Part shown: positions 33,276 through 50,181 of the stretch, piece by piece
How positions within the stretch are numbered: the first letter of the stretch is position 1
How the letters are laid out: the number at the start of each line of letters is the position of its first letter
Assembly: GCA_963718615.1 (NCBI GenBank)
Contig: OY970368.1
Coordinates: 2,528,001 to 2,592,000, forward strand
Direction: 5' to 3'
Origin: an uncultured cyanobacterium
GTDB lineage: Bacteria > Cyanobacteriota > Cyanobacteriia > PCC-9006 > JAAUQQ01
DNA: 64,000 nucleotides
Translations under genes and position numbers: made by a program
Notes under the pieces: generated by a model
Database searches by the model: none
What the model was told of the DNA's origin: nothing
The model's input: the letters and a program-made list of their open reading frames with translations, nothing else

Positions 33276-35882
33276 TTAAGGAATACAGGCGTCATTGACA
33301 TCAATAAAGGCGCTAGGTTCTGGACTACCGCTCACCGAGTTCAGCAACTGGACTGGAGCGTTGTTGTTGAGCGAAGATAGGAGATCCCGAGACCGCACAA
33401 AGAACGTGGCTTGGGTGTTTGGATCCAAGCTCAAGGTCGTGAGCGCAATCCCGCTAGGCGCAACGTTGCCAGCGGTAATCACACAGGCGGTCACGCTCGG
33501 ACTCACCGCTGCGACATCAATATCAAGCATACCGCTGCTCTGACCCTGAAGCCGGTTGTTGAGGATATTCAATACCGCAATCGTTGCGGCATCACGGGCT
33601 TCGATCTTAATCGCTTGTCCTCCATTGCCGGTGATTTCGTTGTTGCTGATCCCCGCCCCCTCAATCGAGGTATTGGTCGGCCATTCCTGGAGACCGGCCA
33701 CAGCCGCTACGGAGCGAATCCCATCACCGCTGTTGTCTGTGATCCTGTTGTTGTCGAGGGTGAGTTCCTGGGAACCGGCTGAGTTGAGGCCAATATCAAG
33801 ACCAGACGCACCGTTGTTGTTAATCTGGTTGCCCCGCACAAAGATTTCCTGAGAATAGGCTGTTGTTCCAGGATCGTCCGTACCGTTCAGAACTGAGATC
33901 CCCGCACCTCCATTGTTGCTGACCGTACTGTTGGTGATGCTCACTTCCTGGGAGCCTCCGCCCTGATTGGCCTGCACCTGCATGCCGACCGTCCCATTAC
34001 TGGAGATCGTGCCTTGATCCAAGCGTACTTCTTGGGAACTTGCAGTCGCTAGTATTGAACCCTCAGCCCGAATCAGGAGACCGGTTTGGCTACTATTGAG
34101 AATCGAGTTGTTGAGTAAACCACCGTTCACGAGACCTACGCTAGTATTGGTGGTGCTGCTGGGGGCGATTGAAATAATCTGACTCGGCGTGTTGCCAGGA
34201 CTCGCCAGGGCGGCAAATTCCATGCCAATGCCGTTGTCACTGAGCTGATAGCCTGCGATCGCCAGATCAACCGCTTGCAACGTGCTGCGGTTTTCGGCAT
34301 AGATCCCCCGACCCACAGCCCCAGAAATTTCATTGTCAAACAGTGTCACATTACCACCTACATCATCTAGAAAAATGCCATTGGCCCCAGCTCCAGTGAT
34401 GCGGTTGTTGCGCAGTTCTACGTTGGTAATGCCCCTTGCGACAAAGGCATTTTGACCGGCATTTTGCAATTGAAAACCCGCGAGAACCGTGCGATCGCCC
34501 CCGGCAGTCACCAAATTCTCGCCACCGCTAACGATTGGAAAAACCCCATCTCCGGAAAGGGGCAATTTCACCCGAATACCGTCGATATAGTTGTTGGTTT
34601 GGGAGAAGGGCAATCGAACTGGCTCAGCGAGAAAACCGGGGAACGGTAAGCCTGCAAGATACTGCTCAGGGCCCTGGGACAGAACCTGGCTACGGGGAGG
34701 AATGATAAAGCTTTGAATCGGGGTGACACTCCCTTCGCCATCGACGTAGATAACCGTGTTGCCATCGCTGTAGGTGGCGGGATCGCTGGTGACTAGGGCG
34801 ATCGCCTCTTCTACTGATCCAAAGGGACGTTCAATCGTGCCCGTTCCACCCGCACCTTGGCCGAGGGTCACATGGATAAAGCGATAATCTTGTTCTTCTT
34901 CGGGGTTTTGGAGAACTTGGGTGTTGTTTTCAGAGAAGACTTCGGCTTTAGATTGGGTTGCGATCGCAACGTTAGGATTCCGGACAAGCGACTCTCGCAG
35001 GCGATAGGGGACTTCTTCGGGGAATTCGGTTCTTTGCGCCGAACGTAAACCAGGGAGACTAGCACCAATGGAGAAAGCAAGATTCGTGCCAAATTCACCA
35101 TCGTGTTGCAGGGCTAAACCCGCATTGAAATTAGGCGTAAAATTGGCCGCAAGACGCAGTTTGCCGCCGATAAATCCATCGGTTTTGTCACCATCCATAA
35201 TATAGACACCCCCATAGCCGCGCAGGTCACCTCCTTGCCAGTGGGCTAACCTCCCGCCAACTTCCGCATCAGCACCGCGCAGGGCATCTTCGATCTGCAA
35301 GACCCGCTGGCGTTGGCGTTGGCTGTTGAGGACAAGCTGGTTGCCCTGAAAACCGCTGGTGGTGAGCAGGCCTGTGTCGATATCAATCTCTTTAATCTTG
35401 TTGCTGGTGTCACCCAGGGGCAAATAACCATTAATCCGAAAATCCCAGTTGCCCAGACTTTCAAATCCCGCCCCCAGTTGATAGAAGGTGCTTTCGCGGG
35501 TGGAGCGACTGTCAACGCCGATGTAGCCGCCTGTGATGCGATGGCGATCGCCATCAAAATCCCGATACCCCAAGGCCAAATTGCCCCCCCAATGCCCCCC
35601 ATTGTCCAGCAATAGACGGAGATCGAGGAACGTGAGAGTCTCACCGGGATTTTGGCCCATGGGGACAAAGCCTTGGATACCGGTGATGCCGTCAAAGCCA
35701 GCGCTGGAGCTGTTGTGGCCAATCCCTAAGCGGGCGGGGACTCTAAGGCTTTTGGCGTCACTCAATTCCGCCGGAATGGTCTCGGTCGGCGTCGATTCGG
35801 GGGATTGGGCGATCGCCACAAAACCGCCAATACGGTTAACCAGTAGAAATAGTGAGGCCGTCAGCAGGAGAGAATTACGCAT
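33276..35882 (-). CDS. Inverse-autotransporter-like outer-membrane protein with beta-helix passenger
   Basis: Signal peptide; N-terminal barrel motifs (GGNLALGYR, YQLGAGFESL, FRINGYLP); GTGTIERPFGSVEEA; many N.I..N...GI repeats. Confidence 0.75.
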   Translation of the reverse strand: MRNSLLLTASLFLLVNRIGGFVAIAQSPESTPTETIPAELSDAKSLRVPARLGIGHNSSSAGFDGITGIQGFVPMGQNPGETLTFLDLRLLLDNGGHWGGNLALGYRDFDGDRHRITGGYIGVDSRSTRESTFYQLGAGFESLGNWDFRINGYLPLGDTSNKIKEIDIDTGLLTTSGFQGNQLVLNSQRQRQRVLQIEDALRGADAEVGGRLAHWQGGDLRGYGGVYIMDGDKTDGFIGGKLRLAANFTPNFNAGLALQHDGEFGTNLAFSIGASLPGLRSAQRTEFPEEVPYRLRESLVRNPNVAIATQSKAEVFSENNTQVLQNPEEEQDYRFIHVTLGQGAGGTGTIERPFGSVEEAIALVTSDPATYSDGNTVIYVDGEGSVTPIQSFIIPPRSQVLSQGPEQYLAGLPFPGFLAEPVRLPFSQTNNYIDGIRVKLPLSGDGVFPIVSGGENLVTAGGDRTVLAGFQLQNAGQNAFVARGITNVELRNNRITGAGANGIFLDDVGGNVTLFDNEISGAVGRGIYAENRSTLQAVDLAIAGYQLSDNGIGMEFAALASPGNTPSQIISIAPSSTTNTSVGLVNGGLLNNSILNSSQTGLLIRAEGSILATASSQEVRLDQGTISSNGTVGMQVQANQGGGSQEVSITNSTVSNNGGAGISVLNGTDDPGTTAYSQEIFVRGNQINNNGASGLDIGLNSAGSQELTLDNNRITDNSGDGIRSVAAVAGLQEWPTNTSIEGAGISNNEITGNGGQAIKIEARDAATIAVLNILNNRLQGQSSGMLDIDVAAVSPSVTACVITAGNVAPSGIALTTLSLDPNTQATFFVRSRDLLSSLNNNAPVQLLNSVSGSPEPSAFIDVNDACIP

Positions 35883-36633
35883 GGGGTTAGGCAGATGCTC
35901 AGTAGGATGACTCAAAAGCGGTAGAACCGGAATATCCCTAAAGTTCCCTGATTTATTTGTTGAGAAACGAATTAGGTCGCGCAGGACAGCAGAGGCGGCC
36001 ATAAAAGCAGCCATAGAGGCGACTACAGAGGTGAGTAACCATAGAGGCAGCTACAATTCCTAGCGAAGTTTCTTTCTTCCAGAAATCTTGCTGATTAATG
36101 AAACTCTGTGGTTCTACCTAAGAAGAATTGCCGACGAGACCGTAGTCCTCTCAGAATAAAATTTCCTAGATTTTACGGATGAAGAAATCTTGCTCAAGTG
36201 AACACCTAAAAAGCTTTAAATTGCCGTTGATTAGGTATTCAAAGCGCCAGAGCCCTGTCTGGAAAAGATTTTTTTGCTTTTGTAACATATTTTGGCTTCA
36301 ACGCTTTGGGGCTCAAGTCTTACAGATACGTATGGTTATTTTTAGGCTCTCTTTTGTATCTGAAATTTTTAAGCTTGTGAAGAATCCGGAAGAATCATCT
36401 CAGCCAAATGTTTGATTTTTTTAATTAAGCCTTTGATGAAATCGGTCGTTCTTCGCGGGACATCTCTCTAAATTACGCAAAGAGAAAATAGAAACATCTA
36501 CGGAATCCCTTTGGGAGATCTTGGTATTCAATAGACTTCAGCAATCTGTATGGATAGGGCTCAACAGGCTTAAATATTCAGTACTGCCATTGTGCATCTA
36601 CATCAAGCTGTTTCCATTTGATCTAACAACAAG

Positions 36634-39117
36634 ATGATGAAACGCCCCCATTGGCCGTTGCGCCAGGGGCTGATTGCGCTGCTGATTTCTAGCGGTTCGG
36701 CGGCTTTGGTCGCTCCGCTGTTGGCGCAAACGGCACCTGGAACAATCATTCGCAATACATTTACAGGCACCTACGACGGGATGCAGGCCCCGGCGGTTTC
36801 CAACGAAGTGACATTAGTGATTTCTGAGGTCGCGGGGATTACGGTCCAAGCCCAGTCTCCGAGCAATCCTGGTCCTGACCCCGATGACAATCTATTTGTG
36901 GATTTTGTCATCACGAATACGGGGAACGATCCCACGACGTTTTTCCTGCCGGATACCGTTACGCTGGGCGGTGCTGGGGCAGCTTCGTTCACGGCTGGAA
37001 CCCTTGTCGTCACGAAGTTCAACGGTACTGCGCTGCCAACGCCTGTGCCTATCCCCAATGGGGGGGCCGAGACTGGAGCGTTTCCCAATGGGGGGTTGCC
37101 CGATGGGGGCTCGATTAATCCTGGTGCAACTGTTGTGGTGCGGGTACCGATTACGGTCAAAGGAACCGCGCAGAAGGGCGATCGCCTCAATGTCTCCCTG
37201 GGGAACACCACCCCTGCCGATGCCCAAAATCAGCCCTATACAGCGAATGGCGGCAGTGTTTATACGGTGGATAATGCCGGGACCGACAATGGGGATAGTA
37301 ATGGGGCTCCGGTGAATGGCGATCGCGAAGCCATGGACACTGCCTCACCCATTGTCGTTGGCGCAACTTTTCAAGCCTTTACCAAAATCCTCTTGGCCCA
37401 GACCTACAGCAATAACCAGACGCCAGGCGTAATCACCGATGACCGGCTTGATTATTGTCTAGCGCTGAACGTAGCGGATACGGTTCCCGAAGAATTAGTT
37501 GATGTGTTGCCGAGCGATCTGAATCCAACGGAGATTTCCCTCGATGGGGTGTTGGATAGCCGCGTTTTGATCGCCGATGCGATCCCAGCGAATATGCAAC
37601 TGACGGCAGCCGCACCCACAGCACCCACGAGCGTTCCGGGCTGGCAGGTCGTGTACACAACCAGCGCGCTTACCACTCCAGCCCATCAAGCGCAATGGAC
37701 CACTACCCGACCTACCACTGGGATTACCCGTGTGGGGTTCGTGATTGATCAGTCCGTTCAGCAGGGCAGCACCATCGGCGGCGGTAGCGATTGCTTTAAG
37801 TTCTCGGTGGAAGCCCAGCCCAGCTTTCCCGGTGGTCGAATTGAAAATATTGCCCAGGTATTTGGCCAATCCCAGCCGGGGCCAGTCCTGGCCAATACAC
37901 CAACCCAATTGGTTTATGACGAATCCGGGGACCAAACCCTCAACAACGGTTTGCTGCGCGACAACCCCGACCCCGAGAGCGGCGGCATTGCAGCGGCCAA
38001 TGGTGGAATCACCAACGGAGTGGCCACGCTAGAGGTGGATGGCGCGGATCCTGGTCGTGGTGCAGATCCAACGGCAAGCGATACGAATCAAGGCTTAGAC
38101 AGCGGTGATAATGCTGGAACCAAGGCCAAGGGCGGTGAAACGCTAATTTTTAATTTGGTGCCTGCGCCGATTAACGGGCCGGACCAGAAACCGGGGGCGA
38201 TCGGACCTAACAACGACAACGACGATTTCACCAGCAAACTGCTGATGCCGCCCGCTGCGCTCGACCCGGCCCTACCACTTAACGATGAGCAAACACCGCC
38301 GGTTACATTTACCAACACCGTCCGCAACAGCAGTATTACCCCCCAAGTAATTTCTTTGTTGCCGACACGACCGATCCAGCCAGACGCATTGCCTGATGGC
38401 ACGGTTGTAACGCTGACCAATCCGGTCAATGGCCAAACCGCCACCTATCGCTATACCGCAGCCGGTGGGTTTGAGTTTGTCTCCGGTGCAGGGGGTCCTA
38501 GCGCAACCCAGCCGGTTCAGCTTCAGGTCGGCACAGGCGAGGCCAGTCAGGCCAGCTATACAGTCGTTGTCAACCTGCCCAGCGCCAAACAGCTACAGGA
38601 ATATCCGATTCCCATTACAGCGTTTGTGGACCAGGGCACACCGGGGTTGGACCCTGATGATCCTGCGAATGTCACAATCAATCGCCTCTACACCGGCTTT
38701 ATTAAGGTTACCAAGGAAGCCCGAATTCTAGATGAAGAGGGTACAACCGAGCTAGTTGGTTTTACCACCGATCAGTCGAAGTTAGCCCCTGAGGTCAAAA
38801 ACGATCGCTTCATCGAATACCGGCTGATCTACAGCAACCTTGCCCAAGCGCAAGGCAGTGGTGCCGACAACATCATCTTACCGGCCACTAACTTTGTCTT
38901 AACCGAAGACGGTAAAGCCAACGGCAACACCTGGTTTGAACTCACCGACGATCCCAACGCTGCCAGTCGTCCGAGCAGCGGATCGGCGACTGCGACCCTC
39001 GGGACGATCGCCACCGTCACCACCGAAGGAGACATTCAAACCTACACCGTTACCGTGCCCGACTTCCAGCCCGGTGAGAGCGGCACGCTGATCTTCCGTC
39101 GTCAAATTCAGAAATAG
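36634..39117 (+). CDS. Secreted DUF11/Ig-like protein A, candidate major fibre subunit
   Basis: Signal peptide; mature N-terminus QTAPGTIIRNT...SNEVTLVI; C-terminal KVTK..IEYRLIYSN..VLTED..PGESGTLIFRRQI*. Confidence 0.75.
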   Translation: MMKRPHWPLRQGLIALLISSGSAALVAPLLAQTAPGTIIRNTFTGTYDGMQAPAVSNEVTLVISEVAGITVQAQSPSNPGPDPDDNLFVDFVITNTGNDPTTFFLPDTVTLGGAGAASFTAGTLVVTKFNGTALPTPVPIPNGGAETGAFPNGGLPDGGSINPGATVVVRVPITVKGTAQKGDRLNVSLGNTTPADAQNQPYTANGGSVYTVDNAGTDNGDSNGAPVNGDREAMDTASPIVVGATFQAFTKILLAQTYSNNQTPGVITDDRLDYCLALNVADTVPEELVDVLPSDLNPTEISLDGVLDSRVLIADAIPANMQLTAAAPTAPTSVPGWQVVYTTSALTTPAHQAQWTTTRPTTGITRVGFVIDQSVQQGSTIGGGSDCFKFSVEAQPSFPGGRIENIAQVFGQSQPGPVLANTPTQLVYDESGDQTLNNGLLRDNPDPESGGIAAANGGITNGVATLEVDGADPGRGADPTASDTNQGLDSGDNAGTKAKGGETLIFNLVPAPINGPDQKPGAIGPNNDNDDFTSKLLMPPAALDPALPLNDEQTPPVTFTNTVRNSSITPQVISLLPTRPIQPDALPDGTVVTLTNPVNGQTATYRYTAAGGFEFVSGAGGPSATQPVQLQVGTGEASQASYTVVVNLPSAKQLQEYPIPITAFVDQGTPGLDPDDPANVTINRLYTGFIKVTKEARILDEEGTTELVGFTTDQSKLAPEVKNDRFIEYRLIYSNLAQAQGSGADNIILPATNFVLTEDGKANGNTWFELTDDPNAASRPSSGSATATLGTIATVTTEGDIQTYTVTVPDFQPGESGTLIFRRQIQK

Positions 39118-39126
39118 GAGACCCCC

Positions 39127-39699
39127 ATGAAACCCATTCAGTTTGCGATGAGTGCGGGGTTAGCGGCGATCGCCTCAGTCTTAGCCCTCAACAGTGCCCC
39201 TCTCTTAGCAGAAGTCCAAGCCGGAGAGAGAGGTCCGTTTCTAGCCCAGGCCCAATCCCAGGCAGAGGTTAAGCTCCAGCTCATTGCGGCCAAGCGAGTG
39301 ACCACGACCGATCCCCAAGGACAGCCCCAGATGCGCTGGCAACCCCTAGAGGGCAATGCCGCCGTTCAACCAGGCGACGTGATTCGCTTTACGCTGCGCG
39401 GTAATAACGCAGGAAAAGGCCCAGCTCAGAAGTTAGTCCTGCAACAGCCAATTCCAGCGGGAACTCAGTTTGTGCTGCAATCCGCCCGGATGGTCAAGGG
39501 CTCCTCGGAGATTCTCTACAGCATCGACCAGGGCAAAACCTTTAGCCGCACCCCCGTCGTTACCGTCACCGAAAACGGTCGTGTGGTCGAACGCGCGGCT
39601 CCCCCCGAAGCCTACACCCACATTCAGCTTCGTCTGAGCCAGTCCCTCGCGCCCCAGGCTCAGATTGAAGGGGAATACCAGGTTCGGGTCGGTTCCTAG
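39127..39699 (+). CDS. Secreted single DUF11-like domain protein B
   Basis: Signal peptide; VQPGDVIRFTL..N...A..LVLQQPIPAGTQF...YQVRV*. Confidence 0.75.
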   Translation: MKPIQFAMSAGLAAIASVLALNSAPLLAEVQAGERGPFLAQAQSQAEVKLQLIAAKRVTTTDPQGQPQMRWQPLEGNAAVQPGDVIRFTLRGNNAGKGPAQKLVLQQPIPAGTQFVLQSARMVKGSSEILYSIDQGKTFSRTPVVTVTENGRVVERAAPPEAYTHIQLRLSQSLAPQAQIEGEYQVRVGS

Positions 39700-39771: not shown

Positions 39772-41277
39772 ATGTCAACCCAACGATCCGTGCCTTTGTG
39801 GCTGCGTCGCCTTGCGGTGATGGCGATCGCCAGCGGCCTCGGGATTGTTCCGACTCCTTTGGTCGGCCTCACCCAAATCTCTGAGAGCCCTAAGGCCATC
39901 CTCAATACCGCTGCTTACACCTACCAAACCCCGGACGGCGAGACTGTTCAAGCGATTACGAATCAACTCGAACAACCCCTGATCGATCCCTTCGGGGTCC
40001 TAACCGGCTGTAACGGCGAACTGTTGCCGAGCTATCAAGGCTTTAGCGTCGGCGTCTACGATCCAGATTCCTCCGGCTTAGACCTCGGTCGCCTGACCGA
40101 TTTGACCCGCACGGAACTGCCCGACATTCCCGGTAACGGCATTTCCCGTGGCATTGCCCCCAATGGCCAAAATGCCAATCCCTTCTTTATTGGCGATGAT
40201 GGCCGCTATAGTTTCCTCCTGGATGAGAGCAAAGGTCAGCTTAATGTGGGTCGGTCCTACATCTTGGCGATTAATGCTCCGGATGGTTCGGTCTATGCCG
40301 ATCGCCGCATTCTGTTGACCATCACAGGACTTTCGGGTCGTATCCTCTCCTACCGAGCCACCGCCATTGACGGTCGGCCCCTCAGTACCCTCGACGGTCA
40401 AGATTCCGTCACGGGTGAGCTGGATCTGGAAAACGCAGAAACCCAGGGATTGGCGCTAGCGGTGCTGAATTTCTCTGCTAGTACCTGTGATGCCAGCGAG
40501 GTGCAAATTATTAAGGCGAGCGATCGCGCCGCCGCTGAACCGGGCGATACAGTTATCTATCGTCTCTCGATTCGCAATCTTTCCAGTACAACCCTCACCA
40601 GCCTAGTTACCACAGACATTCTGCCCCCTGGGTTTAAGTTTCTGGAGCGCTCGGCACGGGCCGAAGCGGGTGGCGTAGATGTACCGCTAACCGTCAGCCA
40701 AAACGGTCGCACGGTGACGTTTAATGCAGCGGCTCTCAATCTGCCCACTGCCCAAAATGGTGGAACGGCAGGGGTGCTGAATATTGCCTATGCCGCTCAG
40801 CTTACCCCGGATTCGATTCGGGGGAATGGGGAAAATCTGGCCTCGGTGCAAGGATTACGGGTGGATAATAACTTGGCCGTAAAAGATGGTCCGGCGCGGC
40901 ATAAATTGCGGGTGCGATCGGGCATTCTCTCGGACTGCGGCACAATTTTAGGCCGCGTCTTTGAGGACAAGAACTTTGACGGCGAACAGCAGCCCGGAGA
41001 ACCTGGCATTGCCAACGCCGTGATTATTCTCGACGACGGCAATCGCATCACCACGGACAAAGACGGGTTGTATTCCGTCGCTGGCGTGTTGGCAGGCCAA
41101 CGCACAGGCGTCCTGGATGCCACCTCCGTGACCGGCTACACCCTAGCCCCCAACCAAAAATTTGAAGAGCGCAACAGTCAATCTCGCCTGGTGAATCTTT
41201 CGCCTGGTGGTCTGGCGCGGATGAATTTTGCCGTCACCCCCGCTGTGAAGGAGGCTGAGCCATGCAATTGCAACTAA
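39772..41277 (+). CDS. Secreted DUF11 + SdrD-B-like protein C
   Basis: IIKASDRAAAEPGDTVIYRL..TDILPPGF..ENLASV; GRVFEDKNFDGEQQPGEPGI. Confidence 0.8.
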   Translation: MSTQRSVPLWLRRLAVMAIASGLGIVPTPLVGLTQISESPKAILNTAAYTYQTPDGETVQAITNQLEQPLIDPFGVLTGCNGELLPSYQGFSVGVYDPDSSGLDLGRLTDLTRTELPDIPGNGISRGIAPNGQNANPFFIGDDGRYSFLLDESKGQLNVGRSYILAINAPDGSVYADRRILLTITGLSGRILSYRATAIDGRPLSTLDGQDSVTGELDLENAETQGLALAVLNFSASTCDASEVQIIKASDRAAAEPGDTVIYRLSIRNLSSTTLTSLVTTDILPPGFKFLERSARAEAGGVDVPLTVSQNGRTVTFNAAALNLPTAQNGGTAGVLNIAYAAQLTPDSIRGNGENLASVQGLRVDNNLAVKDGPARHKLRVRSGILSDCGTILGRVFEDKNFDGEQQPGEPGIANAVIILDDGNRITTDKDGLYSVAGVLAGQRTGVLDATSVTGYTLAPNQKFEERNSQSRLVNLSPGGLARMNFAVTPAVKEAEPCNCN

Positions 41278-44200
41278 AATCAATTCCCCATTTCCTGATT
41301 CGTCTTGGTTTTCAGCTTCTGACCAGTGGCTCAGTCCTCTGTTTGATAGCGCTACCGACCTTGGCTGAAGTTCAGTCCCAGTCCTCAGCCCCTCCCAATC
41401 CAGACGTTGCTCAATCCGCTGGAATCGAGGCAACCGACGCAACCGCGTTCTGCCCCTGCGAACTCGAACTCAAAATCCTCAATCTCAATGAAGATGATGT
41501 TCTAGACGCCCCCTCCGGCATCATCGTCCTCAGCCACGACGCCCGCAAAACTGTCGAGCTGCGGGTCAATGGCGAAGTGGTGGAAGAAACCCTAATCGGT
41601 CGCCGGGAAAACGACGATGGCAAGGGCATCAGTCGCTCCACCTGGTACGGCGTACCGCTGCAATCGGGCAAAAATACTGTTACCGCCACCACCAACGATG
41701 GCGAAACCAAAATCGTCACCGTGATGGTTCGGGGCAAACCCCAACGCCTCACCGTCAGCACCGTCGAGACCCGGATCCCTGCTGATGGTCGCTCAGTTAT
41801 GACGGTCACCGGCCAGTTGCTGGACGAAGCAGGCAATCTGACCAATCGCAATACCCTGGTGACGGTCTCGGCGAATGGAGGGGAATTTGTTGGGGAAGAT
41901 GGCGATCGCCTACAAGACGGATTCCAAGTCGAAGCCCAAGATGGCAAATTTACCGCACAACTGCGATCGGGTCTTAAAGCCCAGCGGGTTCAAATCCGTG
42001 CCGCCGTAGGCAGCGGCCCCATCGGCAGCACCCCCCTTGAAGCCTTTACCCAAGCCGAGTTTGAAACCAGTCTGCGTCCCTCCATCGCCACGGGGGTCAT
42101 TAGCCTGCGTCTCGGTGGCGAAGGTAACGATTTCTACGGCAAGCTGCGGGACTTCTTGCCCTTGGACGGTGACAATGATTTTACCGCCGACCTCAAGGGC
42201 CAAGCCTTTGCCATGGGGGCGGTGGGGGATTGGTTATTGACGGGAGCTTACAATAGCGATCGCAACCTCAACGAAAGCTGCGACGAAACCAACCGCCTCT
42301 TCCGTGCCTCGGATCCCTGCGACAACGACTATCCCACCTACGGCGACGGTTCCCGATCGGAGATCCTGACCCCTTCCCTTGATAGCCTCTACCTGAAGTT
42401 CGAACGAACCTCTCCCGTGGCTCGGGCTGGAACCGATTCGTTCCTTTGGGGCGATTATAAGACTGACCAGTTTGCGCGGCGATCGCAACAGTTTACGGCC
42501 CTCACCCGCGAACTCCACGGTTTTTCCGGCAACTACAACTGGGATAACTTACAAATCTCTGGTTTCTTCGGCAACAACGTTCAAGGCTTCCAGCGGGACA
42601 CCATTAGCCCCGATGGCACCAGTGGATATTACTTCCTTTCCCGACGGCTGTTGCTCGAAGGCAGCGAAGATGTTTTTGTCGAACTAGAAGAACTCGATCG
42701 CCCCGGCACGGTGCTTCAGCGCATTCCCCTGCTTCGGGGTCAGGATTACACGATTGATTACGATCGCGGCACATTGCTGTTTACCGACCCAGTTCTACGC
42801 ACGGACATCAGTGCCGAAGGATTCACGCTGGTTCGTCGCATTGTCGCCACCTACCAGTACGACGATGGGGGTTCCGACAACAAGATCTACGGCGGTCGCT
42901 TACAGTACAACTTCTCGCGGGATAAGGGCCGTGAAACCTGGTTGGCGGGAACCTATCTGAGAGAAGACAAAGGCTCAAGGGATTACAGTCTCTTCGGTTT
43001 GGATACCTTAATCAGCCTAGGCGACAGGGGCACGCTGGTGGGCGAGTATGCGCGTTCGGACAACGACTCAGAAATTCTGGGCAATGTCGAGGGCAGCGCC
43101 TATCGCTTTGAGTTGGATGGCGAACTCACCGACAGCCTCTTGGGCCGCGCCTACTATCGCCATGCGGATACTGGCTTTAGCAACAACGCCACGGTCAGCT
43201 TTGTTCCTGGCCAAACGCGCTACGGTGCTCAGCTCAATGCAAGCATCGCCGATCGCACGCAGTTGCGATTCCAATACGATCATGAAAAGAACGAAGGCAA
43301 TGTTCCTCAGCCTCGGCTTACCTTCGGGGATCTGTTCGATGCCCAGGAAGAGGCCACACCGGGGGTCGAAGTCGATAATTCCCTGACCACGATTTCCGCC
43401 GGAGTTTTGCAGAAAATTGGTCCTGCCGATGTCAGTGTGGACTGGGTTTATCGCGATCGCAATGACAACAAGTCCCCTGGTATCTTCGACGAAAACTCCC
43501 AGCAGTTGCGATCGCGACTTCTCGTTCCCTTAAATGATCGCCTGAGTTTCCTGGCTCAAAACGAGACGACGCTTTCGGCGGATGTGGACCCGGTGTTTAG
43601 CGATCGCACTCTCCTCGGCCTCAATTGGAAAGTCTGGGATGGGGTCAACGCCCAGTTAGCCCAGCAATTTTTCCATCGGGGTCAGTACGCAGGCAAACAA
43701 ATCACCAGTTTGAATGTCACAGGTGACTATAATCTCAGCCGCGATACGCTCCTGCGGGGACGCTATACGGTTCTGAATGGGGCAGAAGACCTGCAAATGC
43801 AGGGAGCCGTGGGGATTCAGCACAATATCCCGATCAATCCTCACCTCAAGGCAGACCTAACCTTCGAGCGAGTATTCGGCAATCTTCTTGGGGACAATGC
43901 CGCCGCCGATGTCTTTGCTCAGCCCTTTGCCTTTGGCCAAAGTGCAGCGGCCCTCGGCATTCCCGACGGCACAAGCTACAGCGGTGGACTAACCTATGCC
44001 ACCGATCGCGTCCAAGCCAAAATCCGCTACGAACGCCGCAATTCCCCCCAGGGCAATAACCAGGTTCTTACCGCTGCCGCCGGAGGTAAAATCAACGATT
44101 CACTCACGGGACTTTTCAATTACAAACAGGCCCGAGCCGCAAATCAAACCCTAGAGAATTTGGGCACCACAGCCTATCTTAAAGCCGGTCTCGCCTACCG

Positions 44201-44978
44201 CAATCCCCAAAGCGATAAATTCAACGCGCTCCTACGCTACGAATATCGCAAAAATCCCTCGACGATTCCCGATAGCATTCTGTTTGGCAGCGGCACGGGC
44301 TACCATGAACATCTGTTTGGCGTCGAAGCGCTTTATACCCCCAATTGGCAATGGGAATTCTTTGGTAAATTGGCCCTACGAAATAGCGTTTCGTTCCTGG
44401 CAGATGATCTCGTCGGCAGCAGTACCGTGACCCTAGCGCAAGGTCGGGTGAGCTATAAATTTGCCCAGCGCTGGGATGCCACAGGGGAGTTCCGCTGGCT
44501 CAATCAAGGCAGTGCCAACTACGGTGAAACGGGCTTCCTGGGTGAATTAGGCTACTACGTGAATCCCAATCTGCGCCTTGCGGGGGGGTATTCCTTGGGG
44601 CGGGCGAGCGATCGCGACTTCGATGGCAGCCGTACCGTTGGCGGTCCCTACTTCGGGGTTTCGCTCAAACTTGACAACCTCTTCCAAGGCTTCGGCTTAC
44701 AGAATTGGCCGGAACCAGCATTCAACCAACCCGCTAGCGTTGAACCGAACATCAACCCAACGCCTGAATCAACGCCTGAATCAACGTCTGAATCAACCCC
44801 TGAATCCCCTGACCCTTTCATCGAAAACCTCACACCGGAAACTCCCGATGAACGTCCCCCTGTTCCTCAATTGGAACCCCAACTCGAACCTTTCACTCCT
44901 GAAGAATCTGCTAGCCCCACTGGAGAGAACTCCGGTCATTCTGCTCCCGTATCTGCCCCTGTACCTGCCCTGTGGTGA
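41262..44978 (+). CDS. Large outer-membrane beta-barrel protein D with periplasmic Ig-like domains
   Basis: Signal peptide; invasin-like IPADGRS..LLDEAGN; roughly 600 aa of alternating amphipathic strands ending GPYFGVSLKL; Pro/Glu-rich tail. Confidence 0.75.
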   Translation: MQLQLKSIPHFLIRLGFQLLTSGSVLCLIALPTLAEVQSQSSAPPNPDVAQSAGIEATDATAFCPCELELKILNLNEDDVLDAPSGIIVLSHDARKTVELRVNGEVVEETLIGRRENDDGKGISRSTWYGVPLQSGKNTVTATTNDGETKIVTVMVRGKPQRLTVSTVETRIPADGRSVMTVTGQLLDEAGNLTNRNTLVTVSANGGEFVGEDGDRLQDGFQVEAQDGKFTAQLRSGLKAQRVQIRAAVGSGPIGSTPLEAFTQAEFETSLRPSIATGVISLRLGGEGNDFYGKLRDFLPLDGDNDFTADLKGQAFAMGAVGDWLLTGAYNSDRNLNESCDETNRLFRASDPCDNDYPTYGDGSRSEILTPSLDSLYLKFERTSPVARAGTDSFLWGDYKTDQFARRSQQFTALTRELHGFSGNYNWDNLQISGFFGNNVQGFQRDTISPDGTSGYYFLSRRLLLEGSEDVFVELEELDRPGTVLQRIPLLRGQDYTIDYDRGTLLFTDPVLRTDISAEGFTLVRRIVATYQYDDGGSDNKIYGGRLQYNFSRDKGRETWLAGTYLREDKGSRDYSLFGLDTLISLGDRGTLVGEYARSDNDSEILGNVEGSAYRFELDGELTDSLLGRAYYRHADTGFSNNATVSFVPGQTRYGAQLNASIADRTQLRFQYDHEKNEGNVPQPRLTFGDLFDAQEEATPGVEVDNSLTTISAGVLQKIGPADVSVDWVYRDRNDNKSPGIFDENSQQLRSRLLVPLNDRLSFLAQNETTLSADVDPVFSDRTLLGLNWKVWDGVNAQLAQQFFHRGQYAGKQITSLNVTGDYNLSRDTLLRGRYTVLNGAEDLQMQGAVGIQHNIPINPHLKADLTFERVFGNLLGDNAAADVFAQPFAFGQSAAALGIPDGTSYSGGLTYATDRVQAKIRYERRNSPQGNNQVLTAAAGGKINDSLTGLFNYKQARAANQTLENLGTTAYLKAGLAYRNPQSDKFNALLRYEYRKNPSTIPDSILFGSGTGYHEHLFGVEALYTPNWQWEFFGKLALRNSVSFLADDLVGSSTVTLAQGRVSYKFAQRWDATGEFRWLNQGSANYGETGFLGELGYYVNPNLRLAGGYSLGRASDRDFDGSRTVGGPYFGVSLKLDNLFQGFGLQNWPEPAFNQPASVEPNINPTPESTPESTSESTPESPDPFIENLTPETPDERPPVPQLEPQLEPFTPEESASPTGENSGHSAPVSAPVPALW

Positions 44979-44989
44979 TGAGGTGAATT

Positions 44990-47900
44990 GTGATGAATAA
45001 ACTCATGAATCGATCGCAGCGCAAACGTCTGCACAACCTATTTCAGAAGCTGCCTTGGCTTGCAGGCTGGGTCACGGGAGCTGCACTGCTGGCTCAGACG
45101 CCTTTAGTCCTAGCGGCTGGCGAAATTCAGGTCAAAGTCGAATTTAACCCGATTACGATCACCCAAGGAGATTCTTCGAGTCTGACCTTGACAATTCGCA
45201 ATAACGAACCCAGCCCGTTAAATAATGTCAACTTAAATAAGGCTTTACCAGCAGGATTAGCCATTGATACCTCCAAGGCCATTACACAAAATAGCTGTAA
45301 CTTTACCTTGGCCAATACGACGGCTAACCTCAATATTACTGACGGTACCTTACCGGCCTTTGATACGGGATCTGGCACGCCGGGACTCTGTATTTTGGAA
45401 CTGCCCGTAATTGGTAAAAAAGCACCGGGTTCGTCCGTAACACTGCAAATTGGCGTGGGTGAATTCAGTGCCGGAGGTTTTAGCAATTCTGCTGCGGCCC
45501 AAAACACCATTACGGTAAATCAGTTAGGCAATTTAGGTTCCACAATGGCCTTTATTCCGACTGAACTTCCCGCTGGTGGTGCTACTAAATTCCGTTTAAC
45601 ACTTCCTAATAGCACGGGTAAAGTCCTCAATAATGCGACATTTACGAATGGCTTTACCATGCCTGCTGGGTTCACCTTACGGGCGGGAAGTTTAAACAAT
45701 ACCTGTGGCGGCAGTGTGAGCATTACAGGAACTCCACCTACCATTAAGCTCATCAGCGGCACAATTCCTACCAGTGGTTGTGTGATCGAATTTGAGATGG
45801 ATGGGCCTTTCACAGAACAAACCTTTGGCCCAGTGAGTTGGGCTGCAGGAGATTTGGTTACTGATTTAGAGGTCAGCAATAATGCGGCTAGCTCAAATAC
45901 GGGTAGCATTGTTGCGGGCATGAAAATTAGCCAAAGCTTCAATCGCAACAATGTCTTTATTAACGAAGCATCTACCCTCACGATCCGGATTCGCAATGCC
46001 AACGATACTGCTGTCAACAATGCGAATTTGCAAAGCCTGATTAGTGCGAGCAATGGCGGTGTTCTGAGCGAATTGCAACTGGTTAATGGCACAGGCAATA
46101 TCAATAGCAACTGTCCGACCACACCCAGTGCAACCTACAACGGTACCAATGGCCAGTTAAATTTCACCAATGTTTCTATTCCAGCCGCAACTCTTGGCCC
46201 AAACCCAGCAGCGAAGGTCGCGGAATGTCAAATTACAATCCAGGTCATCACCGACAAAGATGGTATTGGGACTTATACGAGTGCGATCGCAGCCAATCAA
46301 CTCGCGACCAACCAAACCGCTGCGACCAATACTTCGCTCATCGTTACTGATCTCGTCGGAGATGGGGGCAATGGTGTTAGCTTTGGCTTTGGTTTCGGTC
46401 CTGTGGGGGGAGGATTTGCCTCCTACGAAGTTGCCGCCAGCAATCGCGGTCGCCTCAGAATTACGTTGAATAACGTCGCCGGTGAGACCTTGACTGGGGT
46501 CGGGATTGGCGGTACGGGAATTGCGCTGGAAACTGGACTGCGGATTGCGGATGCAGGCGTTTTTAACAATACCTGTACAGCGAATGATGCTGATATCATT
46601 GCCGCATTGAATGCCACCTCCATTACGCTCACTAGCGCTACGATTAACCGTCGCGGTAGCTGTTCCTTTGAGATCAATGTGGTCAGCGATCAGTTTAAGC
46701 TAGGACCCGGTTATGCCGCGAGCGTGGCGGCGGGCGTCGTAACAACCGCTCCCGTTACGGGGCAAGCAGGACGAACCTATAGCAATGCCGCTGGGAGTTC
46801 TGGGCCTAACTTTTTGGAAGTGACCGACTATCTCAACATTATCCCCAGTATGGCCACGAGCACCGTGGCTCCCAATGCCGATGCCCGGATTAAACTGCGG
46901 TTGACCAACTCCGAGGATCAGGCCAAAAGCCAACTGCGGTTGCGCTATAGACTGCCCTTTGCGATCGCCCTCACCCCCGACTTCTTCGCTGGACCCGGCT
47001 GCGGCATCGATGCGAGTGCCTTCCAAGTGGTTGAAGTCAGTCCCGGCGTGTTTGAACTGCAAGCGGATAACATCCAGATTCCTGCAAGAGGCACCACTGG
47101 ACCGACGGACACCGGCAATGCCCAGGATGGCGTTTGCGATGTCGCCTTTGATGTTCAGGCACCGGGCACCCCTGGAGGACAAACAGTCACCGTTCCCCCG
47201 AATGTTCTGCAAAACACAGATGGTACCCAGCAAAACCGCACCTCCCGTTCGACCAGCTTTACCGTACAACCGCTCAATCTCAATCTGAGCCAAAGCATCA
47301 TCAACGAAGAGATTGGGGCCGGTGAGGCCGTGGATTTGGTCAAGGGTGGGCAGCCTGCGATGCTTATCATTACGTTGAACAATCCAGGCAATCCCGTTCC
47401 ACTGACCAATATTGTCCTGAACGACACCTTAGAGGATCCCAAAGGGCTGATTTATCCGGGGGGGCAACCCACCACCACCTGTACCGGCGCAGGGGGTCCG
47501 GCAACGGCCACCGTGGATGAGGCAACCAAATCCTTTCGCCTAGAGGGAGCCGATTTAGCCTCGGGCCAGTCCTGTATTCTGCGAGTTCCGGTCACGACCT
47601 TAGCGGTTGATCAGCTCCAGAATATTGTTCCGGCAGGAGCGGCAGTTTCTGCCGAAGGCGCGAAAACCAACCAGGATGATGACCAAATTCAGGTCAGTTC
47701 CAACCTCGGTTTGGTCAAAGCCTTCTCGCCCACAACGATCCAAACCGGCGAAACCGCACGCCTGACCCTAACGGTTTTGAATGCAACCACAGCGGGTTAC
47801 AACGATGTACGGCTGACCGATAACCTGCCTGAGGGGCTAACGCTTGCCAGTAATCCCAATGTGACCAGCACCTGCGGTGCAACTTCTGCTCCTGGCGATG

Positions 47901-48670
47901 GTGCTGTGATTCAAGTCAACAATGGCGCTGTTAATGCCAATGCGGTCTGTTGGGTAGAAGCGGACGTCACATCCCTCATTGCCAATCCAGGGGGCTACGT
48001 CAACGCGATTCCAGTGGGGGGTCTCAAGGCAGGTAGCTTCCAAAATACTGAACCCGCCGAAGCTACGCTGTTCGTCAATGGCACCACCATCGAGCAACCC
48101 AATCTGCGTCTTGTTAAACGCATCACTGAACTGAAAACACCCGTCCGACCGGGTTACGCTGAACAAACGACAGCTATTACCAGCGTCAACAACTTTACGC
48201 CGGCGGCTGGTCCTGATGCGGACAATGCACCGGGCTGGCCTAATCCGTTGGATGCTAGCGGTATTAGTAGCTATATCAAAGGAGCCTTTAATACTAGCCA
48301 AGTTCCGGGAGGACAATCAGCGTTTCTTGTTTCCGGTATGGAAATTGAATACACCGGTTATTACCTCTCCAACGGCACCGTCAGTGCAGGCAACACCAGC
48401 GTTTGCGACTTTGTCCCGGCGAATACAACCTATGTTCCAGGCTCGTTGGTTTGGGAAAAAGGTGATGGTACAGAAACGCCCCTGAGTGACGCAGTGGGTG
48501 CAGCCGGTGGCTTCTATGCCAATGGCGAAAGCCTCCCCGGCTCCTGTGTTGGCACGAATAATAACAAAGGTGCAGTCGTGGTGAACTTGGGTAATTTACC
48601 TCAATCCACTGGCCCAGGCGCTCCGGCAGCGTCCTATGGCAAGATTCGCTTCCGGGTAAAAGTAGACTAG
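44990..48670 (+). CDS. Large secreted repeat protein E, candidate tip adhesin
   Basis: Seven DUF11-like repeats of about 130-165 aa, each with a Cys pair, plus C-terminal LRLVKRI..IEYT..VCDFVPANTTYVPGS..KIRFRVKVD*. Confidence 0.78.
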   Translation: MMNKLMNRSQRKRLHNLFQKLPWLAGWVTGAALLAQTPLVLAAGEIQVKVEFNPITITQGDSSSLTLTIRNNEPSPLNNVNLNKALPAGLAIDTSKAITQNSCNFTLANTTANLNITDGTLPAFDTGSGTPGLCILELPVIGKKAPGSSVTLQIGVGEFSAGGFSNSAAAQNTITVNQLGNLGSTMAFIPTELPAGGATKFRLTLPNSTGKVLNNATFTNGFTMPAGFTLRAGSLNNTCGGSVSITGTPPTIKLISGTIPTSGCVIEFEMDGPFTEQTFGPVSWAAGDLVTDLEVSNNAASSNTGSIVAGMKISQSFNRNNVFINEASTLTIRIRNANDTAVNNANLQSLISASNGGVLSELQLVNGTGNINSNCPTTPSATYNGTNGQLNFTNVSIPAATLGPNPAAKVAECQITIQVITDKDGIGTYTSAIAANQLATNQTAATNTSLIVTDLVGDGGNGVSFGFGFGPVGGGFASYEVAASNRGRLRITLNNVAGETLTGVGIGGTGIALETGLRIADAGVFNNTCTANDADIIAALNATSITLTSATINRRGSCSFEINVVSDQFKLGPGYAASVAAGVVTTAPVTGQAGRTYSNAAGSSGPNFLEVTDYLNIIPSMATSTVAPNADARIKLRLTNSEDQAKSQLRLRYRLPFAIALTPDFFAGPGCGIDASAFQVVEVSPGVFELQADNIQIPARGTTGPTDTGNAQDGVCDVAFDVQAPGTPGGQTVTVPPNVLQNTDGTQQNRTSRSTSFTVQPLNLNLSQSIINEEIGAGEAVDLVKGGQPAMLIITLNNPGNPVPLTNIVLNDTLEDPKGLIYPGGQPTTTCTGAGGPATATVDEATKSFRLEGADLASGQSCILRVPVTTLAVDQLQNIVPAGAAVSAEGAKTNQDDDQIQVSSNLGLVKAFSPTTIQTGETARLTLTVLNATTAGYNDVRLTDNLPEGLTLASNPNVTSTCGATSAPGDGAVIQVNNGAVNANAVCWVEADVTSLIANPGGYVNAIPVGGLKAGSFQNTEPAEATLFVNGTTIEQPNLRLVKRITELKTPVRPGYAEQTTAITSVNNFTPAAGPDADNAPGWPNPLDASGISSYIKGAFNTSQVPGGQSAFLVSGMEIEYTGYYLSNGTVSAGNTSVCDFVPANTTYVPGSLVWEKGDGTETPLSDAVGAAGGFYANGESLPGSCVGTNNNKGAVVVNLGNLPQSTGPGAPAASYGKIRFRVKVD

Positions 48671-48758: not shown

Positions 48759-48918
48759 TATCAAAGCTCTGTCGCAGGATAGACCCCGCCTATTTCGCTG
48801 GGATGAAGATGAAATAAATGCGGAACATTTGGATCTGACCCTGGTCACTAGAAAGAATCCAGACTGGCAATTTTTCCGGTCTATCCTTTGCAATGTTGCA
48901 ATTTTTGATGAGGCTGAT

Positions 48919-50181
48919 ATGACTTCTTTCTCTAGTTCTGTAATGAATCAGACGGCGCGATCGCTCGCCCTCGGACTAGGCGTACTCACTGGCGCATTGC
49001 CCCTGGCGATCGCAACCGCATTACCGAGCCAAGCCCAAACTACCTTTGCCGATGTCAGCAGCACCTACTGGGCTGAAACCTACATCACAACGCTCGCCCA
49101 ACGGGGGATCATCAGCGGTTTCCCCGATGGCAGCTTTGGTCCCGACCAACCGGTGACTCGGGCTCAGTTCGCTGCCTTGGTCCAAAAGGCCTTCCCCCAA
49201 GCTGCCGCCACCCGCAGCGTAATGAATTTTGGGGATGTTCCCGGCAATTATTGGGCTACGCCTGCGATTCAAACGGCCTATACCACTGGCTTTCTCAGCG
49301 GTTACCCCGACAATAGCTTCCAGCCCAACCAGAATATTCCTCGGGTGCAAGCGTTGGTTTCCTTGGCCAATGGACTGAACTATGCTCCTTCCACTTCGGT
49401 CAATACCATTCTGGGAATCTATCAAGATGCTGCGGCAATTCCTGACTATGCCCAAAACAGCGTTGCTGCCGCAACGGAACAGCGGATGGTCGTGAATTAC
49501 CCTAATGTGGCTTTCCTCAATCCCAATCGTCCTGCGACTCGGGCCGAGGTTGCTGCTTTCATCTACCAAGCCCTGACGCAACAGGGAACCGTTGCTAGCA
49601 TTGACTCGCCCTATGTAGCAGGTGTCTCTACAACGCCCGTTGCCCAGGTACCCCAAAGCGTGACGGTTCCCGCTGGGACCGTGATTCCCCTGCGGTATGA
49701 TGCGGCAGACAAAATCTACGTTGCGCCGGATGAGCCTAACCCGGTTCCCGTCACGCTCTTGACCGATCGCAGCGTGCAGACCCAAAATGGGCAGGTTTTA
49801 ATCCCAGCCAATAGTAAAGTTGTCGGTGAACTGCGATCGACCAATGGAGGTAGCCAGTTCTATGCACAACGAATTGAGTTAGCAGATGGCCGCCAGTATG
49901 CCGTTAACGCCAGTTCTAATGTGATCACCGAGACCGAAACCATTCGGAAGGGTATCAATGCTGGTCGAGTGGTGCGAGATGCAGCCATTGGCGCTGGAGC
50001 TGCTGCGGCCATTGCCGGTGTGACGGGCGATCGCACCATCGAAGCCAAGGAGGTTCTAGGAGGTGCGGGGATTGGGGCGATCGCCGGAGTCTTCCTAGAG
50101 AAAAACAGCGTTGACCTGATTGTGATCAAACCGGAAACCGCCTTAAATCTCACGATTGATAGTGCCTTTGACGTGCAATAG
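48919..50181 (+). CDS. S-layer-homology (3 x SLH) periplasmic protein with C-terminal glycine zipper
   Basis: FADV...YWA, ISGFPDGSFGPDQPVTRAQFA, LSGYPDNSFQP, ATRAEVAA; GAGAAAAIAGVTG. Confidence 0.9.
   Translation: MTSFSSSVMNQTARSLALGLGVLTGALPLAIATALPSQAQTTFADVSSTYWAETYITTLAQRGIISGFPDGSFGPDQPVTRAQFAALVQKAFPQAAATRSVMNFGDVPGNYWATPAIQTAYTTGFLSGYPDNSFQPNQNIPRVQALVSLANGLNYAPSTSVNTILGIYQDAAAIPDYAQNSVAAATEQRMVVNYPNVAFLNPNRPATRAEVAAFIYQALTQQGTVASIDSPYVAGVSTTPVAQVPQSVTVPAGTVIPLRYDAADKIYVAPDEPNPVPVTLLTDRSVQTQNGQVLIPANSKVVGELRSTNGGSQFYAQRIELADGRQYAVNASSNVITETETIRKGINAGRVVRDAAIGAGAAAAIAGVTGDRTIEAKEVLGGAGIGAIAGVFLEKNSVDLIVIKPETALNLTIDSAFDVQ

Follow-up and report, generated by a model that had tools for sequence, protein, structure and literature searches.

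In a 64,000-nucleotide stretch of DNA from an uncultured cyanobacterium (assembly GCA_963718615.1, contig OY970368.1, positions 2,528,001 to 2,592,000 of the forward strand; hereafter the window), we identified a cluster of five genes, here called A to E, in which the lysine, the acid and the asparagine of an isopeptide-type domain are divided between the ends of polypeptides. Gene A (36634..39117, plus strand), which heads the cluster and was read as an open reading frame with its translation, encodes 827 amino acids (aa) with the Lys and the acid in a C-terminal acceptor domain and the Asn in a short hairpin near the N-terminus; protein E ends in an acceptor of the same kind, and protein C begins with a donor of the same kind. 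Strand complementation between such ends is plausible and well supported by the alignments and structural models described below. Further parts of the picture are inferred: that a bond forms, that A's donor inserts in trans, how the subunits are ordered and what B and D do. Taken together, these would make the cluster the source of a surface fibre with a chaperone-usher-like layout, built from isopeptide-type immunoglobulin (Ig)-like subunits, with E at the tip, A in the shaft and C at the base, and locked by Lys-Asn bonds, a picture that we regard as about evenly balanced between right and wrong.

The search for homologues of A gave 419 at E≤0.001, and residue conservation was assessed on 117 aligned homologues as well as on a second set of 51 genome-derived homologues (50 loci and the query) reaching down to about 32% identity. 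The donor hairpin (36727..36837, plus strand, residues 32-68) follows directly on the signal-peptide cut inferred by eye at LLA/Q and consists of two strands, at about 37-48 and 54-64, with N41 on the first and S56-N57 on the second. N41 (36754-36756), about 10 residues past the likely cut, is present in 117/117 aligned and 51/51 genome-derived homologues, and S56, N57 and E65 of the same segment are each retained in 117/117. At the other end of the protein, the acceptor domain (38701..39114, plus strand, residues 690-827; 38701-39117 when the stop is included) has seven strands according to a DSSP assignment on the AlphaFold 2 (AF2) model. Its first strand carries K694 (38713-38715), again found in 117/117 and 51/51 sequences, which is the sole invariant Lys of the 827-aa protein, column 254 being the only other one with at least 80% Lys. 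Y729, Y733, N735, G760, N765 and W767 are likewise invariant in the C-terminal domain of the 117 homologues. All A homologues end a few residues past an F-x-R-x-I strand, a handful of them adding a short Pro-rich tail, and a terminal Asn strand is absent from every sequence of both sets. Lys, acid and Asn never occur together in one contiguous domain in A (117 and 51 sequences), E (29) or B (45); they do so only in a Synechocystis protein described below. By these alignments, the conservation of the triad in A is far beyond chance. A first-pass annotation of the window had already described this division, with a first-strand Lys, no terminal Asn strand and the Asn displaced to the N-terminal segment, and the residues that it named (K694, D759 and N41 of A, K1043 and D1140 of E, and N45 of C) are all found where it had placed them.

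The identity of the acid required a correction. Intramolecular Lys-Asn isopeptide bonds have been predicted or shown for the families DUF11 (renamed CLIPPER), DUF7925 and DUF7933, and the triad in the CLIPPER structure 9IFR is K715/D748/N806 (PMC12617251). The first-pass annotation had taken D759 of A (38908-38910) as the acid, at what it called the DUF11 D position, a designation that can only be an analogy because the C-terminal domain of A is not a Pfam DUF11 match. Position 759 is variable among the 117 homologues (70 Asp, 39 Asn, 4 Ser and 4 Gln), and the preceding position, 758 (38905-38907), is always acidic, with 105 Glu and 12 Asp in the 117 homologues and 48 Glu and 3 Asp in the 51. 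E758 lies with G760 on the strand 751-759 of A, and it aligns to the CLIPPER Asp through a chain of two profile comparisons, A to B with low confidence (42%) and B to the CLIPPER of C (96.5%). Judging from these alignments and from the docking model, the catalytic acid of A is most likely E758 rather than D759.

Gene C (39772..41277, plus strand, 501 aa) encodes a signal peptide, a donor hairpin, a middle domain, a complete CLIPPER and an SdrD_B domain, the Pfam matches being DUF11 at 244-354 (35.1 bits) and SdrD_B at 395-471. The N-terminal segments of A and C are homologous (hhalign 94.9%), with N41 of A aligned to N45 of C. This Asn (39904-39906), in a hairpin at about 36-75, is conserved in 42/42 sequences. 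The internal CLIPPER of C retains each member of its triad, K248/D282/N355, in 42/42 sequences and thus provides an intact reference domain within the operon. In the AF2 model of C, this internal domain is confident, and the predicted local distance difference test score (pLDDT) is below 50 over residues 24-50 and 59-74, so that the hairpin has no confident partner in cis. We propose that C, which has only a donor, is the base or terminator and is held at the barrel encoded by D.

Gene E (44990..48670, plus strand, 1226 aa) encodes a signal peptide, repeats of the DUF7933/DUF11 type and a C-terminal acceptor domain (48095-48667, plus strand, residues 1036-1226). K1043 (48116-48118) and D1140 (48407-48409) of this domain are each conserved in 29/29 sequences, which always end right after YGFIRFRxKV, without an Asn hairpin. 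All Pfam matches of E to DUF7933 and DUF11 lie upstream of residue 1036 and none on the terminal domain; profile comparison of the latter with the CLIPPER of C gave 92% over 70 columns (hhalign), with D1140 aligned to D282. Across loci, conservation in E is confined to the C-terminal domain, which is shared by 85 proteins whose remaining parts vary among DUF7933, DUF11, P-domain, LTD (lamin-tail), GEVED, VWA and beta-helix. This pattern suggests an adhesin whose head varies while its docking domain stays constant, and we propose E as the tip adhesin. In the whole genome, donor profiles gave significant matches only to A and C (E 7e-14 and 5e-18, the next best at about E 1), and acceptor profiles matched only A, E and one paralogue. 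Since E has only an acceptor and C only a donor, neither is able to complement itself. The earlier proposals that E repeats the arrangement of A and that C supplies a donor Asn thus held up in every sequence compared. Naming C as the sole partner of E was too narrow, as the donor of A is equally plausible. A second locus described below speaks for the pairing of E with C in trans.

A natural relative in which the domain is not split comes from Synechocystis sp. LKSZ1. This giant secreted protein of nuclease-like type (P0212 in our set, 2704 aa; source name ExeM/NucH family endonuclease) was the only one to emerge from 5272 candidates when larger fusion proteins related to A 600-827 were sought, and the region of interest spans its residues 634-1005. 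Its residues 634-968 match A 513-827, that is, the third Ig-like domain (D3) and the acceptor, with 35% identity (E 7e-32), and the matching stretch has both the Lys (...FLQQVKQSRIL) and the acid (...VVITEDG). Where A would end, this chain runs on: 6 residues past the domain end (...LIFQRKVNE) follows TLSNNANATYED...NGTSNSV. In a one-sequence search, the donor profile of A hit residues 974-1001 of P0212 with E 1.6e-5 and no other place in it significantly; N977 aligns to N41 of A and a following Ser-Asn pair to S56-N57. Read through these alignments, P0212 shows the unsplit natural form of the domain, and the N-terminal segment of A is the missing end of the acceptor domain, an identification based on P0212, on the homology of the A and C donors and on docking. 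Compared directly as profiles with the last strands of the CLIPPER of C, the donor segments gave probabilities of 0.4% and 0.1%; they are too short for such a match, and the link is drawn through P0212 instead. A CLIPPER domain, which is CnaA-like, has its Lys on the first strand, its acid mid-domain and its Asn on the penultimate strand, which is followed by one more. The donor hairpin of A would correspond, in the models, to the penultimate (Asn) strand and the last one. CLIPPER has a contiguous triad and an intramolecular bond, whereas here the Asn hairpin has moved to the N-termini of A and C.

Docking of the two ends of A (residues 668-827 with residues 32-68; three runs and three controls) gave a median score of 0.63 (0.63, 0.11 and 0.69), as compared to 0.02 for the best control. 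The mark applied to these scores was reached by 58/80 solved complexes and by 2/110 mismatched pairs, counts that are only rough because a custom alignment was supplied. The runs had at least 86% of contacts in common, with a partner pLDDT of at least 53. In the docking model, the donor adds two strands to the seven of the acceptor, and the interface joins acceptor residues 690-696 on the strand with the Lys, 751-760 on that with the acid, and 763-767 to donor residues 37-48 and 54-64. In the antiparallel register (i+j=801) followed by the best-defined pairs, N41 lies across from the invariant G760; E758 and N41 share one face of the sheet, from which D759 points away. The first-pass annotation had tied its proposal to conservation of the three residues and to their juxtaposition in models; Lys and Asn proved invariant, and the model lays the donor against the strands that carry the Lys and the acid, the acid being E758.

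The five genes lie on one strand with intergenic distances of 9, 72, -16 and 11 bases, and a Sec-type signal peptide is apparent by eye on all five products. In public genomes, 56 loci with A were found, and their record titles are cyanobacterial apart from those of two metagenome-assembled genomes (MAGs), one labelled Armatimonadales and one PVC group; the A family is present in Calothrix, Nostoc, Phormidesmis, Leptolyngbya, Pseudanabaena and a Gloeobacterales genome. The complete order A-B-C-D-E on one strand was found in 29 of the 56 loci, A-B-C-D in 11, A-B-C in 2 (contig ends), A-B in 2 and A alone in 12. Among the 11 A-B-C-D loci, six have only 2.9-6.2 kilobases (kb) downstream of A and five have about 10 kb; in the latter five, E may be located outside the flank, and three of them have a much longer D. 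These long D homologues, in the Pseudanabaena/Phormidium loci L046, L049 and L051, measure about 1690-1750 aa as compared to about 1120-1290 aa elsewhere, with no E within the flank. Ten of the loci with A alone are from Nostoc MAGs (L033, L035, L037, L038, L040, L041, L050, L052, L053 and L054) and lack B to E in the roughly 10 kb downstream to which the flank was limited. The lone Nostoc protein is 799 aa long with donor and acceptor intact (fragmented in L053), and the flanking genes in the two inspected loci, L033 and L050, are unrelated.

The same genome, a single contig of 6.1 megabases, carries a second locus outside the window, C'-D'-E' (G000:C1:1406822-1415717). C' is short and has a signal peptide, a hairpin with ...VVNTAS..., a CLIPPER and an SdrD_B domain (44% identity to C, E 2.5e-62), D' is a barrel with 42% identity to D over 1115 residues, and E' has a terminal domain with LFKRIT and VCDPLP that ends without an Asn hairpin. 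The seven frames compared, within this locus and next to it, include no homologue of A or B. As there is no A, E' could be completed only by C' in trans.

Gene B (39127..39699, plus strand) encodes 190 aa, a signal peptide and one CLIPPER-like domain, which matches DUF11 just above the cut-off (25.2 bits as compared to 24.6); the only other Pfam/NCBIfam match is TIGR01451. Its comparison with the CLIPPER of C (hhalign, 96.5%, 85 columns) ends at template column 105 of 139, so B ends short of the Asn hairpin, and none of the 45 B sequences has the Asn strand. The site of the Lys, position 54, is occupied by Ala in 38, Val in 6 and Gly in 1 of the 45 sequences and never by Lys, and the site of the acid, position 107, is Gln in 44 and Glu in 1. 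B follows A in 44/56 loci, was found only beside A and is missing from the A-less second locus. We propose that B is a non-reactive decoy acceptor or periplasmic chaperone, which would hold the donor of A and prevent premature self-reaction.

Gene D (41262..44978, plus strand, 1238 aa) encodes a signal peptide, followed by an Ig-like region (about 163-253), what is probably a large beta-barrel of the outer membrane, and a tail rich in Pro, Ser and Glu. Sub-threshold matches of D homologues were to Invasin_D3 (30/32), DUF2490 (26/32) and Porin_4 (5/32, E≤0.1), and its atlas neighbours are outer-membrane proteins. The 16 families listed at E≤0.1 for the 32 D homologues do not include Usher, no usher of the Protein Data Bank (PDB) was found by profile, and no PDB sequence relative of the barrel was found either. 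A PapD-like chaperone likewise had no Pfam/NCBIfam match in B or the other operon genes. By analogy, we propose D as the pore for assembly and anchoring. The C-terminus of D (44700-44978) and the ends of C' and D' are long Pro/Glu/Ser-rich tails that finish with an aromatic residue (...PALW, ...PALF and ...RALF).

In the mechanism that we propose, the C-termini of A and E would be CLIPPER-like beta-sandwiches that stop after strand 7, with the reactive Lys on strand 1 and with E758 (in A) or D1140 (in E) as the catalytic acid. The N-terminal hairpin of A or C, exposed by removal of the signal peptide, would supply the last two strands together with the reactive Asn. With its insertion, the hydrophobic core would be complete and the Asn would come to lie beside Lys and acid; the joint would then be locked autocatalytically by a Lys-Asn isopeptide bond, formed with loss of NH3, by analogy with CLIPPER and with the BsaA fibre discussed below. 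The core module would be C-D-E, with the truncated domain of E completed by the hairpin of the anchor C at or through the D barrel. A, which combines a donor of the C type with an acceptor of the E type, could be inserted between E and C any number of times as an extensible shaft, and B would hold its donor non-covalently in the periplasm. Together, A and B would extend the core, replacing its one covalent joint with a shaft that can be lengthened.

Several observations weigh against this picture, and some of them favour closure of A upon itself, whereby its own hairpin completes its own C-terminal domain, as in a circularly permuted CLIPPER, to give a covalently closed, rigid ring and no polymer. 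Only E and C would then pair in trans, as a covalent E-C adhesin anchored at D, and the A-less second locus shows that an E-C module can suffice. The AF2 model of full-length A (mean pLDDT 89.2) draws the hairpin as short strands at pLDDT 59-78, which fits docking in cis on its own C-terminal domain, and its predicted template modelling score (pTM) of 0.67 is fairly high for four domains; the hairpin of C, as noted, is left unplaced. For known strand-exchange fibres, however, predictors commonly self-complement donor strands in the monomer, and the paper on tafi reports 'closed' AlphaFold monomers (PMC11821415). The stand-alone A of the ten Nostoc loci would suit a protein acting in cis. The core-facing residue at donor position +4 is Ala or Gly in A and Tyr or Phe in C, and the two donors may accordingly differ in their acceptors, that of A fitting A and that of C fitting E. 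The substitution A43F in the donor, present in 19/117 homologues, is accompanied in the same 19 by L692V (19/19) and L754F (19/19) in A's own acceptor, with the donor of C unchanged. This co-occurrence looks compensatory in the alignment and fits A-to-A pairing in cis and in trans alike; as all 19 sequences belong to one clade, it counts as one event. Covariation between donor and acceptor by mutual information was not significant, with 8 of the top 30 pairs in 686-827 as compared to 21% expected. Closure in cis nevertheless leaves unexplained why A, together with C, D and E, heads an operon of strict order in 29/56 loci, and it gives no role to B, an acceptor mimic lacking both Lys and acid and found only beside A. 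Moreover, the P0212 domain sits in a linear chain with its neighbours at opposite ends, and a ring would need the Ig-like domains D1-D2-D3 to arch over the short linkers 65-68 and 686-689. We therefore consider closure of A in cis unlikely, though it deserves serious attention.

Two further explanations dispense with the bond or with complementation altogether. The hairpin might complement the acceptor without any covalent link, Lys, Asn and acid being conserved because they pack or form hydrogen bonds. There is support for the docking and for the split fold, whereas the chemistry is argued by analogy, and the bond is absent from some DUF11 domains (PMC12617251). BsaA oligomers carrying N35A are still stable in sodium dodecyl sulfate (SDS) without the bond (PMC11580942), hence complementation by itself can hold such fibres together. 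On the other hand, the exact isopeptide triad is kept in A, E, the paralogue E' and the contiguous P0212, K694 is the only invariant Lys of A, and the internal CLIPPER of C keeps Lys, Asp and Asn in 42/42 sequences. B, in turn, has kept the fold and lost the Lys in 45/45 and the acid in 44/45 sequences, which is hard to explain unless these residues are reactive; we judge a purely non-covalent joint to be improbable. The C-terminal domains might instead be shorter Ig variants, the N-terminal motif having another role, such as recognition of D or a secretion signal, and the triad being coincidental. In keeping with this, a match of the C-terminal domain of A to Pfam DUF11 or any isopeptide family was seen in 0/46 homologues at E≤1. 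The PDB profile search with this domain gave chance-level matches at best (top E 0.026, SusD), and with whole A it gave no match. The fibre model, for its part, has against it the weak profile link of this domain to the complete CLIPPER of C (hhalign, 78% over 23 columns) and the score of just 0.11 in one docking run of the three; a pass may also come from the program filling in a beta-sandwich of a familiar kind. Against coincidence stand P0212, in which the motif comes immediately behind the domain, the docking score of 0.63 as compared to 0.02 for the controls and the parallel pattern in A, E/C and E'/C', and we hold this last explanation to be very improbable. A final reservation about the fibre model is that D is not a classical usher and B not of the PapD type, so that their roles in assembly are proposed by analogy only.

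The layout of the putative fibre resembles that of chaperone-usher pili (Fim, Pap, Csu), which have a tip with a variable head and an acceptor but no donor, a terminator with only a donor, and an outer-membrane barrel encoded in the operon; in logic and polarity, E, A and C are like FimH, FimA and the terminator. The joints of chaperone-usher pili, however, are non-covalent and made by one strand, whereas a hairpin is used here, and the putative chaperone B mimics an acceptor, unlike the strand-donating chaperones of the usher pathway. SpyTag/SpyCatcher and isopeptag/pilin-C were engineered by splitting CnaB or pilin domains of Gram-positive origin. In these pairs, a short tag completes the beta-sandwich of its partner and forms a spontaneous covalent bond with it; isopeptag carries the Asn and its protein partner the Lys, and SpyTag carries an Asp. 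The distribution of residues in A is that of isopeptag, but here the split would be natural, the tag would have two strands and the pair would work within an assembly pathway.

A sortase-free covalent fibre formed by strand insertion has a precedent in BsaA of C. perfringens, a biofilm-matrix fibre of the TasA/camelysin family with an 'exchange and lock' mechanism, in which donor-strand exchange is combined with an Asn35-Lys74 bond catalysed by Glu56, as shown by mutation (PMC11580942). As in the mechanism proposed here, an N-terminal donor Asn enters the next subunit, the acceptor provides the Lys and a buried Glu, and no sortase is involved; the polymer is resistant to heat and SDS (PMC11580942). 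BsaA differs in being Gram-positive, with a TasA-type fold instead of an Ig domain of the CnaA/CLIPPER type; its one small subunit leaves no division into tip, shaft and base, and it lacks an outer-membrane barrel and a decoy acceptor (PMC11580942). None of A, B, C and E gave a TasA/camelysin match in Pfam. The archaeal threads of Saci_0406 combine donor-strand complementation with a proposed bond between the alpha-amino group of Asp24 and Asn57 of subunit n+2 (PMC9715654). They are alike in the strand complementation and in a proposed intermolecular isopeptide involving Asn, with no sortase known, but differ in that the alpha-amino group rather than a Lys reacts, in an unrelated fold, and in that they are archaeal and without an outer membrane (PMC9715654). 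Sortase-assembled Gram-positive pili are also covalent Ig fibres with tip, shaft and base and internal Lys-Asn bonds; in these, however, a sortase joins the LPXTG threonine to the Lys of a pilin motif. No sortase-family match was found among the 13 genes scanned (29535-52419), to which the scan was confined, and neither LPXTG nor a hydrophobic anchor is present at the C-termini of A, B, C and E, A ending in ...FRRQIQK. Two candidates for a closer link were set aside: the cyanobacterial tubular (CT) pilus of Microcystis, which is a different system of small glycosylated pilins (PMC12397347), and the 'DUF11' matches in the tafi paper, which are in fact DUF1102 (PMC11821415).

Between its two ends, A has three Ig-like domains on the plus strand, delimited by VIA alignments: D1 (about 64-243), D2, which is DUF7925 (about 245-509), and D3 (about 510-689). 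The sole Pfam/NCBIfam family on whole A is DUF7925 at 255-438 (E 1.3e-50), and the seed of that family is a Nostoc homologue of A, Q8YS00 (PMC12617251). Structural neighbours of the domains are the Ig domains of the Gram-positive pilins and adhesins BcpA, SpaD and PitA, together with 9IFR at Z 8.9; the VIA comparison spanned A 66-688, and residues beyond 688 were barely tested by it. Foldseek with full-length A gave only generic multi-Ig matches, such as PrgB, integrin legs and antigen I/II. Residue 254 (37393-37395), the predicted isopeptide Lys of DUF7925, is Lys in 98/117 homologues and Leu in the present protein and 18 close relatives, which retain D315 and N405; with this Lys replaced, domain 2 may have lost its internal bond in the clade concerned.

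Upstream of A and divergent from it lies a gene on the minus strand (33276-36014) for a 912-aa right-handed beta-helix/NosD-like protein, which was rejected as a member of the conserved unit after giving 0 hits in the 56 related loci. Directly downstream of E, a gene on the plus strand (48829-50181) encodes a protein with two SLH domains, possibly a linker between outer membrane and peptidoglycan.

A full-text literature search found no description of the operon A-B-C-D-E. The cluster may represent an undescribed, cyanobacteria-wide class of diderm fibre, its subunits linked head to tail through inserted hairpins and locked by Lys-Asn bonds, exported and anchored through a giant barrel of no relation to ushers, with B as a 'dead catcher' that restrains it in the periplasm and C-D-E as its core, a possibility that we put forward tentatively, being inclined slightly to doubt it. 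Provided that the bond forms in trans, the cluster would give bacteria with an outer membrane their first example of a pilus-like fibre that is covalent yet needs no enzyme. The engineered Tag/Catcher pairs would gain a natural counterpart, including a natural non-reactive competitor in B, and the donor/acceptor pairs A-A, A-E, C-E and C-A, which differ in core residues, could yield orthogonal tools for protein ligation. Furthermore, a new route of assembly at the outer membrane would stand beside chaperone-usher, type V and curli, and filamentous cyanobacteria would offer in these proteins a molecular handle on adhesion and on the formation of mats and biofilms.

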